From a virus: DNA of 64,000 bases. The translations under genes were made by a program, and so were the position numbers. The notes beneath the pieces were generated by a model. That model saw only the letters and a list, made by a program, of their open reading frames with translations, had not been told where the DNA came from and ran no database searches. The DNA lies in IMG/VR virus record IMGVR_UViG_3300045988_105168, positions 32,001 to 96,000 of that record; one strand, given 5' to 3'. Below, piece by piece: positions 5,467 to 52,105 of the stretch; the first letter of the stretch is position 1; every line of letters begins with the position of its first letter.

Positions 5467-6016
5467 TTAAGCCGTACGTCTCCATACATAATTACTTGTG
5501 TTATAGACATCTATTTTAAAAGCCTTTAAACCAATACTATCTAATGTTCGCCCTGTTGCACTCCAAGATTGTAAATACACTGTAACTGGAGTAGATGTTA
5601 CAATTACATCAACGACCTGTCCACTATATTTGTTACCATCACTACAATGAACTGATTGTCTAGTATAAGCACCTCGTGAAGAAAGTTGTAATGTAAAACC
5701 TGTGCCACTACCATAACCAGAAGCAGAACCAATAAGTAACCATCTACCTTGTGGTAATGTAATAGACGCATTACTTATCCAAGTCGCTCTTGCTTCATCA
5801 GTTAACACCAACCCATTTACTTCCAATGTCTCATCTATTTGAGACCATTCTCCTCCAAATAAAGTTCTAGGGTTGACATTATTAGTACTGATATATATAG
5901 AGCCTGTAGGCTGTATACTATCACTTAATAACCTGCCCCCCCCCCTCACAATAGATACTCTTGTCAGAGATTAGGACAGGCAAATCTTTTACTTTTACTT
6001 TTCCATAATTCGCCAT
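5467..6016 (-). CDS. fibre-tip protein, cassette 3, interrupted by a frame offset at a G10 tract
   Basis: ATG 6016 gives MANYGKVKVKDLPVLISDKSIYCE, then the G10 run. The body RLLSDSIQPTGSIYISTNNVNPRTLFGGEWSQ...VWRRTA is open to 5467 in the frame reached with G9. The track shows only the GTG-started body (5467-5949). Confidence 0.6.
5936..5945 (-). repeat. homopolymeric G10 tract (C10 on the plus strand) inside cassette 3
   Basis: Counted directly: c5936-c5945. Confidence 0.95.
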
Positions 6017-6654: not shown

Positions 6655-7217
6655 TTAAGCTGTTCTTTGCCATATATAAACCGCCATATAAGGCATTACG
6701 TTATTATGCCATCCTCCGCCACCTGTGTTTTGCATTGCAATACTGTTACTCCATCCTTTTGTATCCATACTGTAAAGGTAATCCCAGTTATTATAGCTTA
6801 ATGTAGCTAACGCATCTGAATTGTTGTTATAAGGATTATAACCATTACTATTCTTATTTAATGCTGTAACTTTATGGCAATGAGCTGGCATCTCACTTGT
6901 TGTTAGGTAATGATTATATTGGCCGCCCATTTCACCAGCCCAGAAACTATAATTATTATTATTAAGTGTTCCACACCAATTAGTGTTATTATCTGAAGGG
7001 TCTCCAACACCAACTAAGCATCTACCTTGACAAATCTGTGTCCAAGTGCCCCCAAATAAATCTTTAGGGTTTGTGGCGCTCATTGTTAAATAAATACTAC
7101 CGACAGGATAAACTAAATCAAACAGTTTATCGAGCGTCTTGCCCCCCCCTCATACAGTATTGAACTTGCATTTATAAGGACGGGACTATTTTTTACATAT
7201 GTTTTTCCTTTATTCAT
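6655..7217 (-). CDS. tail-collar (MdpB-like) fibre-tip protein, cassette 1, interrupted by a frame offset at a G8 tract
   Basis: ATG 7217 gives MNKGKTYVKNSPVLINASSILYE, then the G8 run. The body frame is open from the tract: GGGKTLDKLFDLVYPVGSIYLTMSATNPKDLFGGTW...GGGGWHNNVMPYMAVYIWQRTA. The track shows only the part from the internal ATG 7083. Confidence 0.6.
7142..7149 (-). repeat. homopolymeric G8 tract (C8 on the plus strand) inside cassette 1
   Basis: Counted directly: c7142-c7149. Confidence 0.95.
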
Positions 7218-7230
7218 AAGTTAAATCGTA

Positions 7231-7309
7231 AAGATTGTCATACCAAAAAGAGGTATACTAACTATAATATACCTCCTTTCTCTCGAAAGTTAGAAGGCAC
7301 GACAATCTT
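7231..7309 (-). terminator. compound hairpin with an intrinsic-terminator core between the leader ORF and cassette 1
   Basis: Minus strand inner stem GGAGGTATA (7276-7268) / TATACCTC(T) (7257-7249), 10-nt loop, then TTTTT. Outer 14-bp stem AAGATTGTCGTGCC (7309-7296) / GGTATGACAATCTT (7244-7231), allowing G-U pairs. Confidence 0.55.
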
Positions 7310-7349
7310 AGCGATGTGTCGCCCCCCCCCTAATCATATAATTTCTCAT
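7308..7349 (-). promoter_or_regulatory. 13-codon leader ORF carrying a G9 tract
   Basis: AAAAGGAGT SD, then ATG 7349: MRNYMIRGGATHR, stop at 7310-7308 at the foot of the hairpin. This is the only strong SD in the whole 4927-7349 fibre-cassette stretch. Confidence 0.4.
7322..7330 (-). repeat. homopolymeric G9 tract (C9 on the plus strand) inside the leader ORF
   Basis: Counted directly: c7322-c7330. Confidence 0.95.
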
Positions 7350-7371
7350 TAAAAATCACTCCTTTTATTCA

Positions 7372-20383: not shown

Positions 20384-20398
20384 ATAAAAATGAAGAGA

Positions 20399-31691: not shown

Positions 31692-33451
31692 TAATATATA
31701 TAACCTACTAAATATTTTAATGCGTCCACATCGGCACGTCCTATATCGGCTTTACCTTGTTTCTCATATTCAAAAACAACAGATAAACCATACATTAAAG
31801 AAGTGGCGCGGTCACGCTTTGCGGATTTAACTATACGGTCATATAATATTTGACCATTTAATCCGAAATCTCTTTTTATATTACTAAGCTCCTGCATTAA
31901 ATTATCGTGCTCTACGTGCATCACCTGTTCTGCCGCATCATACTTACCACTCTTATATAATTCATCAGTTTCGTTACTATCTACCAATAGTTTTAAACTC
32001 TGGTCTTCAAAACAACTCTTCATATAAGGATAATAAGTGCTATTGAATTCAGCCGTTGCTTGCACACCTCTAATAATAGGTTCAGCATTAGGCAATGTTC
32101 TCATAGTTTCTTCATCGTCATCTTGAATTAAAGGTGGATATTCTTCAATATCTCCTTTTTCATTTCGATAACTCCAAGGCTCTTCTAATAAAGATAAAAG
32201 ACCCTGTCCAGCACTACGAACGTCGATAACCAATTTCTCTGTATTAGGAAATTGAATATGCAATAATTCTCTTAATAATTCCCTTTGTTCTTTTAAACTA
32301 GCCCCGTTTAAAGTTTTGGTATACACAACGTGTTTGTCAAATGTACCATTACTTTTTGGGATAAGTTTAATAACGTGAGTACACGAGTTGTCCGAACCGC
32401 TCTTAGTTGATACGGCAACGTCGTGTGTAATTATGTATGAGTATTGTGTTTTTTTAGGCTGTGATAATTCACATCTATCTAAAACTCTACACTTATTAGT
32501 TAATGAATAAGGATAATAACTATCGTTAGAACTACCAACGAATGTTCCTTCATACTCATACGCAAATTTATCTAAAGACATATCTGGACTTTCTTTTTCT
32601 AGTTCAATTTCTTCCATAGAAAATAGTCCAGCGTCTATACCTACTTGATAATCTAAGCTAGCAACAAAATAATGTTTGTCACCACTTATCATCGAATGAT
32701 AGAAGTTTAAAAACTTTTGATATAAGTCGCAAGTCTTTAACCACGCAGATGAAATATAAATCATTCTACCTTTTTCAATAGGATTTTCTGGGTATCTATC
32801 GTGTAAATCGATAGCGTTTTGTCTTGGAGTTTTAATCATCGGTCTAATAACTTCTGTTAAAGTGTTATCTCTAACAAGTCTGGCCTCGTCCACTAAAACT
32901 AATTGAAAACGCCAACCACGAGCATTATCACCTTTTTGGTTAGTACCTAATGTAATTGCCCTAATTGAACTACCATTTTTTAGTTTAACTATACAGTCAT
33001 CGGTACCAGCCTTAATAGAAGCAATCTCTCTTCGGATATTTTCATTCTTAGATAATTCACCTTCTATTTTTTGTTTAATAACCATACGTGCTTGATTACC
33101 ATTTCCAGATACTATACCAATAGCCATACCTGGATATAAAATAGCCATACATATCATAAATACCGCACATAGCCAAGATTTACCAAGACCACGACAACAA
33201 ATTAACATTGCATTTGGGTATCTTGCCATAGCTCGCATAATTAACCTTTGAAAAGGGAATAAATTTATACCTAATATATCAACCGCAAATTTATCAATAT
33301 AGTATCTATAATAAGATAAGAATTTTGTCCATTCTTCATAATCGATACTCTCCTGATTAATTGGGTCGTAACTTAATGGGTTGTCAGTGTTGTTATTACT
33401 CCAATCTTGTTCTGCTCGTCTTTTTTTACTGAAGTTTTTATATGATGCCAT
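31691..33451 (-). CDS. terL: terminase large subunit
   Basis: 586 aa. Walker A-like CCRGLGKSW, Walker B LVLVDEA, and a C-terminal nuclease-type region with conserved acidic residues. Confidence 0.85.
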   Translation of the reverse strand: MASYKNFSKKRRAEQDWSNNNTDNPLSYDPINQESIDYEEWTKFLSYYRYYIDKFAVDILGINLFPFQRLIMRAMARYPNAMLICCRGLGKSWLCAVFMICMAILYPGMAIGIVSGNGNQARMVIKQKIEGELSKNENIRREIASIKAGTDDCIVKLKNGSSIRAITLGTNQKGDNARGWRFQLVLVDEARLVRDNTLTEVIRPMIKTPRQNAIDLHDRYPENPIEKGRMIYISSAWLKTCDLYQKFLNFYHSMISGDKHYFVASLDYQVGIDAGLFSMEEIELEKESPDMSLDKFAYEYEGTFVGSSNDSYYPYSLTNKCRVLDRCELSQPKKTQYSYIITHDVAVSTKSGSDNSCTHVIKLIPKSNGTFDKHVVYTKTLNGASLKEQRELLRELLHIQFPNTEKLVIDVRSAGQGLLSLLEEPWSYRNEKGDIEEYPPLIQDDDEETMRTLPNAEPIIRGVQATAEFNSTYYPYMKSCFEDQSLKLLVDSNETDELYKSGKYDAAEQVMHVEHDNLMQELSNIKRDFGLNGQILYDRIVKSAKRDRATSLMYGLSVVFEYEKQGKADIGRADVDALKYLVGYIY

Positions 33452-50274: not shown

Positions 50275-50307
50275 CAAAAAAAGCCGACTACTTAACAAGT
50301 AGCCGAC
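50275..50307 (-). terminator. terminator downstream of the 193-aa AT-rich gene
   Basis: Minus strand CTACTT-gtt-AAGTAG core with flanking partial GC pairs, followed by a T run (A run 50275-50282 on plus). Confidence 0.45.
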
Positions 50308-50324
50308 TTCACAAGTATTTTTTT

Positions 50325-50906
50325 TTATGCTGTTATCTCTTCAAGTGTTATTTTATCACTAATTAAAATATAATCTTGATAATCTTTTAACCTCTTTTCA
50401 TAATGTTTAAAACTTTTATATATAATATTATCTATTGTTTTTATACTTGCTTTTATCTCTTCTTTTATCTCTTCTTTTTTATCATATTGTTTAATTAGTT
50501 TATAATCAATTATTTTATTATCTTGTTTTATAACCTTATATAAATTATAATATTTTATATAATGTAAATAGATGCTATTATTATTTTTTAAATCAAATAT
50601 AGCGAGTTGCTTGTTATCTCTTCCAACTTCTAACGCTTCCAAATAATCTATAATATGTATAGATATATCAATATACATTATATCATTATCAACCCATAAA
50701 CCAATATAAACATTATCAATATTTTTTATTTTTTCTTTTTTCTTTTCTATCTCTTTTTTAATCTCTTCTATATTGTTTATATCTGTTTTTATCTCTTCCC
50801 CGTATAAACTAACCATAAAACCATTATTATATGATATATTATTATAGTTTTTGTCTAGTGTAGCCCCCTTGTTTTCTATTATTTCAATTATTTTTTTATT
50901 ATCCAT
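50325..50906 (-). CDS. hypothetical Lys/Ile/Asn-rich protein in an AT-rich island
   Basis: 193-aa ORF. Composition is visibly more AT-rich than the rest of the window. Confidence 0.5.
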   Translation of the reverse strand: MDNKKIIEIIENKGATLDKNYNNISYNNGFMVSLYGEEIKTDINNIEEIKKEIEKKKEKIKNIDNVYIGLWVDNDIMYIDISIHIIDYLEALEVGRDNKQLAIFDLKNNNSIYLHYIKYYNLYKVIKQDNKIIDYKLIKQYDKKEEIKEEIKASIKTIDNIIYKSFKHYEKRLKDYQDYILISDKITLEEITA

Positions 50907-51001
50907 TTTTTACCGTTCCTTTACTTTTCTATTATATTTTTTTAACCTTAACCCCTTATATTCTTATTATATGTAATATATCTTTTTTTATACTCTTTTT
51001 T

Positions 51002-51244
51002 TTACTCTTCCCCCTCTTCCTCTTCTCTTTTTACTATTGCTTTTATATTCTTTTTAATTAATGATATAAAAGCCGTAAACATTATATAATTAATAATATC
51101 ACTATTAAAATATAAGTTAACTCCATCACTAGCCATTAAGTTAAGCCCATATAATAGAGCCATAAAGCCACCTAATAAAGCCATAAACCCCACATATAAA
51201 ACCCACTTTTTAAATCTCCATTTTTTAATTTTTTTTACTTTCAT
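51002..51244 (-). CDS. small membrane protein in an AT-rich island
   Basis: 80 aa with two hydrophobic helices and an acidic tail EEEEGEE. GAGG SD upstream. Confidence 0.45.
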   Translation of the reverse strand: MKVKKIKKWRFKKWVLYVGFMALLGGFMALLYGLNLMASDGVNLYFNSDIINYIMFTAFISLIKKNIKAIVKREEEEGEE

Positions 51245-51301
51245 TTTTTTAACCTCTTTTCTAGTTAAGGACTTTTTTATTATCTCCCCTTAACTAATAT
51301 A

Positions 51302-51330
51302 ATTATATCAAATAAAAAAAAATAATACAA
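51302..51330 (-). promoter_or_regulatory. sigma-A promoter for the AT-rich island genes
   Basis: Minus strand TTGTAT (51330-51325), 17 nt, TATAAT (51307-51302). Phased T/A tracts lie upstream. Confidence 0.5.
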
Positions 51331-51402
51331 GCATTTTTTTACATTTTAACATTATTTTTTTACATTTTACATTTTTTTGTAAAGTGCTTTTTTTTTGCCT
51401 TG

Positions 51403-51435
51403 TTTTTCTACTATATAAAAAAGCCGTGCTATAAT
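51403..51435 (+). promoter_or_regulatory. conserved early promoter, copy 0 (points into ORF-free repeats)
   Basis: TTTTTCTACTATAT box, TGcTATAAT. CTAC to -10 spacing is 22 nt, as in all other copies. Confidence 0.6.
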
Positions 51436-51492
51436 GTTTATAGATAAAAAAAGCAAGTATAAAAAAGCCGTTTTTATCATATAATATTAATA

Positions 51493-51528
51493 GAGCCGAC
51501 ACGAGCCACGAGCCGAACGAGCCGACAC
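51493..51528 (+). repeat. short tandem repeat GAGCC(GA)(C/A)AC x4
   Basis: GAGCCGACAC GAGCCAC GAGCCGAAC GAGCCGACAC read directly. Confidence 0.8.
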
Positions 51529-51607
51529 GAACGAATGTTCACACGAACAAGTGTTTGTCAACCAAAAAAGGTTGACAGACTAACACGAACGAATGTTTGA
51601 CACGAAT
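51525..51607 (+). repeat. two copies of ACACGAACGAATGTT..ACACGAA flanking the palindrome TGTCAACC-aaaaaa-GGTTGACA
   Basis: Direct repeats at about 51525-51548 and 51583-51607. Palindrome arms at 51556-51563 and 51570-51577. Confidence 0.75.
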
Positions 51608-51609
51608 AC

Positions 51610-51727
51610 ATAACACGGCATAGAGTTTTTGTGGGGAATTTTGCACGAGAGCATAACACGGCATAAAAAAGTTGTGGGGGAAATCGGCAGAATATAACAC
51701 GAATTTAAAAAATCGTGGGGAAATTTC
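51610..51727 (+). repeat. three tandem 41-43-nt repeats ATAACACG-N-(T/C)GTGGGG(G)AA(A)T
   Basis: Units start at 51610, 51653 and 51694. The last ends at the upstream edge of promoter copy 1. Confidence 0.8.
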
Positions 51728-51731
51728 AAAA

Positions 51732-51764
51732 TTTTTCTACTATATGCAATTTATATGGTATAAT
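51732..51764 (+). promoter_or_regulatory. conserved early promoter, copy 1
   Basis: TTTTTCTACTATAT, 22-nt register, TGgTATAAT. Confidence 0.6.
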
Positions 51765-51825
51765 TAAAGCAGAAAAGGACATAATATAAGTAGAGCAACA
51801 AAAAAATAAAAAAAAGTTAAAAAAA

Positions 51826-51856
51826 TTTCTACTATATCAAAAAGTTGTGGTATACT
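51826..51856 (+). promoter_or_regulatory. conserved early promoter, copy 2
   Basis: TTTCTACTATAT, TGgTATACT, same register. Confidence 0.6.
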
Positions 51857-51889
51857 AGAAGTGTAAAAAGCAAGGAAGAGGTGTTAAAA

Positions 51890-52105
51890 TTGTATAAAAA
51901 CGAGATTAAAAAAGAATTACAAGCCATTTATAATAGCAATAAAAACATTGATAATGAATTAGTGAATATTAAGGTTGCTATACATAATTTGGAGAAATTA
52001 GGTTGTAATACAAAAGACCTTGAAAAAATGCTTGATAACATTGGAATTGAATTTTATAAATTTAAAGTTGAGAATAAAGAAGTATTAAAGAATTGGAGAG
52101 TGTAA
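51890..52105 (+). CDS. small early protein
   Basis: The likely start is TTG 51890 (GAGGTG 6 nt upstream). The track's start at 51845 lies inside promoter copy 2. Confidence 0.45.
   Translation: MYKNEIKKELQAIYNSNKNIDNELVNIKVAIHNLEKLGCNTKDLEKMLDNIGIEFYKFKVENKEVLKNWRV

Follow-up and report, generated by a model that had tools for sequence, protein, structure and literature searches.

A split receptor-binding module with three poly-G tracts

We analyzed a 64,000-nucleotide (nt) stretch of the virus record IMGVR_UViG_3300045988_105168 (positions 32,001 to 96,000), here called the window, which comes from an uncultured gut phage of ~110 kb. Our subject is an element in the tail operon of this phage, in which a short open reading frame (ORF) with its own Shine-Dalgarno (SD) sequence and a poly-G tract runs into a compound RNA hairpin, directly ahead of an array of genes for receptor-binding heads. 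All features of the locus lie on the minus strand. For comparison, we collected ~60 related loci (given L numbers) from IMG/VR, GTDB genomes, ENA, JGI and Logan assemblies through protein and DNA-pattern searches. A scan of the window for G/C runs longer than five returned three only: G9 at 7330-7322 in the leader ORF, G8 at 7149-7142 and G10 at 5945-5936. All three are on the minus strand and fall within 1.4 kb. Matches to a run of G8 or longer numbered six, against 0.10 expected from 100 shuffles; the three tracts are clustered and far beyond chance.

The tail module reads from a tape-measure gene (16904-12087) through genes for proteins of 723, 282 and 421 amino acids (aa), the last assigned to DUF5048 and phrog_1887, to a gene for a 118-aa protein (7728-7372). 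We call this last product the anchor and regard it as the N-terminal domain of a split receptor-binding protein (RBP), because in locus L021 (7268-8122) a homologue of its first 95 residues and one Gp10_C head form a fused protein of 284 aa. The anchor ends with LEDRVKYLEDN, which is coiled-coil-like, followed by ALIFVKTGEY; the coiled-coil-like tail was gained in this lineage. Most of the 134 anchor homologues that we found are 118-126 aa long. In P0069, P0076, P0081 and P0087 (137-138 aa), a heptad segment, LEDRVKYLEDNMKQVEDNMKYIEEN, is duplicated, which lengthens the predicted coiled-coil stalk ahead of the ALIFVKTGEY end.

Four head cassettes follow at spacings of 21-30 nt. Cassettes 1 (7217-6655), 2 (6625-6047, 192 aa) and 4 (5445-4927, 172 aa) encode Gp10_C heads that match PF21939 at E = 1e-14 to 1e-25, and cassette 3 (6016-5467) encodes a divergent head (E = 3e-06). 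Cassette 2 also matches T4 gp10 (2FKK). Each head carries its own N-terminal peptide of ~25 aa, and in PHROG families the homologous domain forms the C-terminal part of longer tail proteins. Judging from these sequences, the phage RBP is split into the 118-aa anchor and a set of alternative Gp10_C heads, which would dock on the anchor non-covalently. Behind the array come two tail genes, of 132 and 359 aa, and the genes for holin and endolysin; in relatives that lack the array, these tail and lysis genes lie directly behind the anchor gene.

Cassettes 2 and 4 have no poly-G. In cassettes 1 and 3 the tract lies ~22 codons into the gene, where a change in length switches the frame of the gene product. 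The G8 of cassette 1 is out of frame, and G9 or G6 restores a product of 186-187 aa; the G10 of cassette 3 is likewise out of frame and is restored by G9 or G12. The head ORFs behind out-of-frame tracts are intact where we checked (cassettes 1 and 3 of the window), which argues for switching rather than decay. Both cassette tracts are OFF in the window, whereas both are ON in its closest relative, L048. Cassettes of the window, L001/L002 and L038-L056 that start M..G.TY/..YEGGG carry poly-G (ON at G9, G8 or G10, depending on type), and those that start MAKPYGR lack it. A predicted pairing in cassettes 1 and 3 also involves the G-tract, here with a CU-rich stretch farther upstream that codes for the conserved PVLI motif (7142-7190, z = -2.9; 5936-5985, z = -1.8). 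This pairing mirrors one in the leader, described below, and its significance is uncertain.

The leader ORF begins at ATG 7349, 22 nt past the anchor-gene stop and still within the tail operon. Its SD, AAAAGGAGT (7366-7358), lies 9 nt ahead of the ATG and forms an anti-SD duplex of -8.4 kcal/mol, compared to -8.5 to -11.8 kcal/mol for neighbouring genes and -8 to -13 kcal/mol for nearly all other genes. This is the only strong ribosome-binding site from the anchor gene to the 132-aa gene behind the array. An earlier reading of the DNA, made from its letters and here called the sequence-only reading, had pointed to this SD-led ATG, to the G9 tract and to downstream cassettes without SDs. Our recomputation agrees on each point: the cassette starts score from +2.1 to -2.5 kcal/mol, leaving them without a recognizable ribosome-binding site, and 102 cassettes of relatives average -0.44 kcal/mol. 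We also recovered its three translations and stop positions exactly. With G9, the leader ORF (7349-7308) has 13 codons, encodes MRNYMIRGGATHR and stops at TAA 7310-7308. A G10 or G7 tract gives an ORF of 29-30 aa with its stop at 7260-7258, and G8 or G11 gives one of 28-29 aa with its stop at 7264-7262. A change in the leader tract therefore moves only the stop of a mini-ORF of 13-30 codons, and any effect on the downstream genes is one that we infer. Because no convincing promoter was present upstream of the leader among the minus-strand promoter-like sites listed by our scan, we rejected the idea of a separate leader transcript.

Conserved RNA structures around the leader

The 151-nt region around the leader folds at -46 kcal/mol (z = -5.5). 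Within it lies the inner hairpin (7279-7246; AAAGGAGGTATATTA / TAGT / TAGTATACCTCTTTT), which has a stem of 15-16 bp, is followed by a terminator-like T5 tail (7249-7245) and folds at -18.4 kcal/mol (z = -5.7). We thus reproduced the compound hairpin of the sequence-only reading, including the terminator form of its inner part. The 5' arm of the inner hairpin presents a perfect SD-like sequence, AAAGGAGG, and its loop region contains the stops of both long leader frames. The inner hairpin is enclosed by an outer stem, in which 7309-7296 (AAGATTGTCGTGCC) pairs with 7244-7231 (GGTATGACAATCTT). The 5' arm of this stem starts within the TAA of the G9 frame; the 3' arm lies downstream of the T-tract and ends 13 nt ahead of the cassette 1 ATG.

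A further structure, hairpin 1 (7329-7292), uses the leader tract itself. Here the G-tract pairs with a CU-rich CCUUCU (7297-7292), CGACA, past the tract, pairs with UGUCG in the 5' arm of the outer stem, and the UAA of the G9 frame sits in the loop. Hairpin 1 was predicted in all six of the sequences that we folded, which represent four clades (-15 to -22 kcal/mol, z = -3 to -5), and is also the RNAalifold consensus. Hairpin 1 and the outer stem are predicted to be mutually exclusive and nearly isoenergetic; hairpin 1 competes with the outer stem and not with the inner, terminator-like hairpin. We rejected the idea that tract length alone alters the fold, because the minimum free energies of G6-G12 variants differ by no more than 2 kcal/mol and both conformations are available to each.

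We aligned 11 distinct sequences from the four clades and found 32 consensus pairs, eight of them with compensatory changes. The two helices of the compound hairpin pair in 95% of alignment cells, compared to 45-55% in slid controls; six pairs are changed on both sides, and the covariation score exceeds those of all 500 shuffles. Five of the 14 outer-stem pairs are changed on both sides, while the inner hairpin is paired in 100% of cells, with G·U variants and one compensatory pair. A covariance model gave 113 bits for the sense strand against 18 for the antisense strand, and its matches occur once per genome and only in genomes that have the leader. Many of the pair variants are G·U, and together with the compensatory changes they indicate that the hairpin is a sense-strand RNA element. 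The feature recurs with covariation in relatives and is not a chance arrangement. Because the outer stem has its 3' arm past the T-tract, it can form only in read-through RNA. Its covariation therefore points to selection on read-through RNA, for which a pure terminator or attenuator is not a sufficient explanation.

A known RNA family was rejected, since Rfam has no match at 7230-7350; one sub-threshold match lies elsewhere in the region (26.8 bits, gathering score 61.7). We also rejected a miniature inverted-repeat transposable element (MITE) or other repeated mobile element, since each genome has a single copy and the G·U pairs tie the hairpin to one strand. A degenerate hairpin pattern searched against IMG/VR found two contigs that we already had and no others.

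The sequence-only reading had proposed that tract length sets whether the leader ribosome melts the terminator. In strict form, such a leader-peptide attenuator would stop the ribosome early with G9, so that the terminator forms, and would place it on the 5' arm of the stem with G7, G8, G10 or G11, so that transcription reads through. The inner hairpin does have terminator form, being a stable hairpin directly before a U-rich tract (T5; T4 in two other lineages). A hairpin-plus-T-run scan of the window included it among four matches with T5 or longer, third by stem energy among those four on the gene strand, with the other three located between listed ORFs. A consensus scan did not list it. 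As to the leader, the short SD-led ORF, if translated as its sequence predicts, reaches the terminator, with two of three frames ending in the terminator loop. These stops lie 13-21 nt from the T-tract end, which suits attenuation, and hairpin 1 could serve as a pause hairpin that synchronizes ribosome and polymerase. The claim that both alternative stops fall inside the loop held in three of the four hairpin clades (window/L048, L001 and L053/L068) and not in the L049-L052 clade. There the stop of one long frame comes ahead of the inner stem, and in L050/L051 the other frame stays open through the loop. Minus-strand terminator-like hairpins at 20390 and 1780, with T5 and T7, offer a yardstick for this phage; one is behind a 107-aa structural gene and the other behind ORF 2904-1810. 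A strong terminator-like hairpin at 50282, also on the minus strand, borders an AT-rich, non-coding-looking stretch (~50300-51900) that contains numerous A/T runs of 7-9 along with short tandem repeats (periods 7-36) and may be a regulatory or replication-origin region.

Several findings at the locus speak against such an attenuator. Beyond the covarying outer stem, which can form only after read-through, there is no antiterminator pairing that would exclude the terminator hairpin; the sole alternative, hairpin 1, opposes the outer stem. The U-tract reaches just T4-T5 and is absent in L066, where the leader stop is instead coupled to the start codon of the head. The leader is not a 5' leader behind a promoter; it sits inside a long late tail operon with no promoter found upstream. 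Essential tail and lysis genes lie downstream, yet G9, the state that would terminate, is the consensus in 12 of 29 genomes, and any termination here is therefore not efficient. The host is probably a member of the Bacilli; leader-peptide attenuation is rare in Bacillota, and coupling of ribosome and RNA polymerase is weak in Bacilli. Attenuation would also leave the SD-less cassettes unexplained. We consider a strict attenuator improbable.

Other ways of coupling leader and array find partial counterparts here. In erm/cat-type attenuation the hairpin hides the SD and start codon of the regulated gene; here the sequestered AAAGGAGG precedes the cassette 1 ATG by more than 50 nt, and no usable start codon is consistently present after it. 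Reinitiation would suit a downstream cistron without a ribosome-binding site. A leader stop overlapping or near the head start occurs only in L066/67, in which one leader frame ends at ATGTTAA on the head start; in the window lineage the loop stops are 40-44 nt and the foot stop 91 nt (13 nt across the closed stem) from the cassette ATG. We rejected a programmed bypass or third-frame ORF linking the hairpin to the cassette ATG, since all frames contain stops past the hairpin and nothing there is conserved.

Variation and remodeling of the module among relatives

The contigs that carry related loci span 78-117 kb and encode endolysins with CHAP/LysM or GH25/CW_7 domains. One of them was binned with a genome of Candidatus Coprovivens (Bacilli). 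No close cultured relative was found by megablast among 50,697 phage records, and the best protein matches, at 25-27% identity, are to Thomasclavelia phages and unannotated faecal contigs. A single variant of the anchor occurs in 346 indexed blocks of the assembly collection, and this uncultured gut phage family is frequent in public metagenome assemblies.

We distinguished six architectures. Besides the anchor-head fusion of L021, the anchor may be followed by one head without poly-G (L061), directly by a full SD-led poly-G cassette (L063-65), or by the leader, the hairpin and one to ~9 cassettes, as in the window, L001-4, L011-14, L038-46, L048-56 and L068/69 (the last two contigs end after one or two cassettes). 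In L066/67 the leader ORF stop overlaps the head start, and the hairpin of L066 has no U-tract. Lastly, L057-L060 (5001-5400) and L015 (7268-7462) have no heads. L057-60 keep the anchor with zero heads, for which reason the heads seem dispensable; in L015 the anchor is truncated and the array lost. Array size thus ranges from 0 to ~9 cassettes. The complete module of SD, ATG, tract and hairpin occupies the same junction in ~30 contigs, which form four sequence clades with three leader-peptide types.

The leader tract is hypervariable in length among these ~30 contigs, even where the flanking sequence is nearly the same, as the sequence-only reading had anticipated: we found G7, G8, G9, G10 and G11, as well as G9A and the interrupted forms G5AG3 and G6AG2. 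Among ten contigs with an identical anchor protein, L047 has its leader fused to a cassette body and the other nine, which retain the hairpin, carry G7, G8, G9 or G9A. L048, whose anchor is 95% identical to that of the window, has G10/G9/G9 where the window has G9/G8/G10, and so differs at all three tracts. A/T runs of 7-9, examined as a control, are mostly constant in the same contigs. In L068/69 the tract of cassette A is a stable G6, while that of the leader is G8 in one and G11 in the other. Across relatives, the poly-G tract is in frame in 33/102 cassettes, and more often in first cassettes (15/25).

What persists across diverged lineages, alongside the hairpin, is the set of start signals. 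The SD, the ATG (kept in all ~30 contigs), a frame that is open as far as the tract, the tract and the TAAGA at the foot of the hairpin are retained; TAAAAGGAGTGA, at the SD, is identical across the aligned clades, and TAAGA is invariant while adjacent stem pairs covary. The leader peptides differ by lineage (MRNYSI, MIKTLA or MNMIYKVHAS). Leader substitutions showed no codon-position bias in any of the three frames, and we therefore rejected conservation at the peptide level. Retention of start signals without retention of the peptide is as expected if what counts is translation itself and not its product.

The segment between hairpin and cassette 1 varies too. A poly-T just upstream of the cassette 1 ATG (7218-7230 in the window, with equivalents in L001, L013, L038, L040 and L053-56) differs among near-identical contigs, from T6 to T9 in the L001 clade and from T4 to T6 in the L053 clade, which alters the spacing between hairpin foot and start codon. 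In the window/L048 clade only, a 6-codon ORF (ATG ACA ATC TTT ACG ATT TAA; 7232-7249) occupies the outer 3' arm, with its stop 3 nt ahead of the cassette 1 ATG; it is not conserved elsewhere.

Several loci have been remodeled at the tracts. In L047 (6387-6795) the tract joins the leader SD and ATG to the body of a cassette F-type head, with loss of the hairpin and five cassettes, and the fused head ORF is intact with G7 or G10. L043 joins the N-terminus of cassette D to the body of cassette F, and L040 has a similarly chimeric N-terminus and body. From the fusions in L047 and L043, we conclude that the tracts are also recombination junctions that remodel the array. It could then be that the leader tract serves mainly as a microhomology partner, with deletion placing one head under the strong ribosome-binding site in an irreversible switch of expression site, as L047, the chimeric cassettes and the range of array sizes would suggest. 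Only one genome among ~30 has this form, and its fusion strips the head of the conserved N-terminal peptide. Deletion between ~9-nt runs should also be far rarer than slippage, and the conserved hairpins would go unexplained. We regard a role of this kind as very unlikely.

A possible ribosome-controlled gate on the head array

Our favored interpretation, to which we assign a probability of roughly 45%, is that the phase-variable leader ORF and the conserved bistable RNA structure gate the SD-less cassette array. Slipped-strand changes in the G-tract would shift the stop of the leader ribosome among three conserved places. With G9 it is the foot of the compound hairpin, which coincides with the loop of hairpin 1; G7/G10 and G8/G11 each place it at a different position in the inner apical loop. 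The place at which the ribosome stops would in turn select the RNA conformation, favoring hairpin 1 or the outer stem and leaving the inner hairpin intact or melted. This conformation would set the flow of ribosomes, and perhaps of RNA polymerases, into cassette 1 and the cassettes that follow.

Control could be exerted on translation, through ribosome delivery and re-initiation or by exposing the bases 13-26 nt ahead of the cassette 1 ATG, and intrinsic termination at the T-tract may contribute. We consider translational control at least as likely as termination control and, on balance, the more likely route, because the cassettes have no SD, the outer stem is conserved in read-through RNA and ends 13 nt ahead of the cassette ATG, and L066/67 combine an ATGTTAA overlap with the absence of a U-tract. 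A termination component is still considered because the hairpin has terminator form and the distances fit a ribosome close behind RNA polymerase. As for the attenuator of the sequence-only reading, the evidence above has weakened it.

Several observations weigh against a gate. The leader frames of 29 consensus genomes divide into 16 that end in the loop, 12 that end at the foot (G9) and one other, a roughly equal and nearly neutral distribution. We compared leader state with the cassettes that are ON and found no correlation, whether for the first cassette (p = 0.44) or for all cassettes (p = 0.53); the notion that the leader frame tracks cassette state was rejected. The tract has decayed in L004 and L049-51 though the hairpin is retained. 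The covariation derives from three to four lineages, with an effective sequence number of ~1.6, and some of the homopolymer differences may be assembly or sequencing errors. The stop-to-ATG distances of the window lineage are not classical coupling distances. Finally, kept start signals with a free peptide are also what a recently derived stub would display.

That last point belongs to a rival explanation, which takes the leader for what remains of a former first cassette (SD, ATG, N-terminus and poly-G) after recombination or deletion at the tract, a stub that slips but controls nothing. Its hairpin would then act as a constitutive partial terminator, or as an mRNA-stabilizing or processing site between the anchor gene and the heads. 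The near-neutral frames, the missing correlations, the unconstrained peptide and the decayed tracts all agree with this, as does recombination between tracts in L047 and L043. The likeness of the leader to a collapsed cassette N-terminus, raised in the sequence-only reading, rests on position, SD, first codons and tract: L063-65 have a full SD-led poly-G cassette exactly at the leader position, with no hairpin, and L047 has the leader fused to a head. The likeness does not extend past the tract, where a by-eye comparison with a cassette body gives 8/24 matching positions, not above chance.

A stub does not readily account for the persistence of SD, ATG, open frame and tract while the codons between them have diverged wholly, nor for a G-tract that forms one strand of a conserved hairpin in competition with the outer stem. 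The foot TAA (TAAGA) is invariant amid covarying stem pairs, and the leader tract remains long (G8, G11) where that of cassette A is down to G6. We judge a functionless stub less likely than a gate, though it is the main competitor. The simpler proposal that the tract is a mere deletion scar is unlikely, given the conservation of the module.

If the leader does gate the array, it would act as one master switch above the poly-G switches of individual cassettes, giving a hierarchical form of phase variation. In its full form, this would be a heritable, stochastic two-level switch, in which the leader tract gates a relay of SD-less heads and the cassette tracts add combinatorial host-range variation; we view that complete scheme as possible but less likely than not.

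In bacteria, homopolymer slippage is a well-known cause of phase variation, and recent reports extend it to a few phages. To our knowledge, the tract in such cases sits in a promoter or inside the gene that is switched. In Fletchervirus phages of Campylobacter, the genes for receptor-binding proteins carry hypermutable polyG tracts (Sorensen et al. 2021, Cell Rep 35:109214; cited in PMC10877375). Like the present phage, these phages are reported to have poly-G tracts of ~8-10 in an AT-rich genome, concentrated in host-recognition genes, with frame switching and mixed progeny. The present phage is distinct in being an uncultured gut phage of ~110 kb with a probable Bacilli host, whose tracts lie in an array of up to ~9 short SD-less heads that share a separate anchor. 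It also has a further tract in a non-coding-like leader ORF before a conserved RNA structure, rather than in a structural gene. Simple-sequence repeats in genes of coliphages T2/T4 and others likewise allow reversible frameshifts and bet-hedging (Gomez, Barrick, Waters, bioRxiv 10.1101/2025.10.21.683753). Those repeats lie within protein-coding genes, and the abstract and section list of that preprint contain no leader-ORF or riboregulator arrangement.

Among regulatory RNAs, the leader resembles the pyrBI and trp attenuators of E. coli and the translational attenuation of ermC and cat, in which the position of a ribosome decides the RNA fold and downstream expression. The resemblance lies in a short SD-led ORF ahead of a hairpin with alternative pairings. 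Unlike those systems, the signal would be a heritable tract length and not a metabolite or antibiotic; there is no antiterminator, the hairpin leaves free the start of the downstream gene, which has no SD, and the leader lies mid-operon. In Bacillus subtilis pyrG, RNA polymerase adds extra 5' G residues in response to CTP, and these pair with the 5' strand of the terminator (PMC7039003). Poly-G pairs with pyrimidine-rich RNA beside a terminator hairpin in both systems, and the number of G residues matters. In contrast to pyrG, the G residues of the leader are templated and heritable and belong to an ORF, and their partner is a CU run that precedes the terminator-like hairpin. The head cassettes, for their part, carry the C-terminal domain of T4 gp10 (PF21939; PDB 2FKK); unlike in gp10, the domain here makes up a separate protein of 170-190 aa, has a putative docking peptide of ~25 aa and is tandemly multiplied. 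In some of its defining features, the element departs from each of the Fletchervirus and T2/T4 loci, the attenuators and pyrG.

Distinctive in this phage family are a tract in a leader ORF joined to a conserved, putative RNA switch and an RBP split into one anchor with up to ~9 alternative heads. Even with an inert leader, the cassette array is a clear new case of phase-variable receptor binding beyond the phages of Campylobacter, the T-even phages and the others surveyed in the 2025 preprint. If the leader gates the array, it would represent a new wiring of contingency loci into gene regulation, one that would allow hierarchical bet-hedging of host range.

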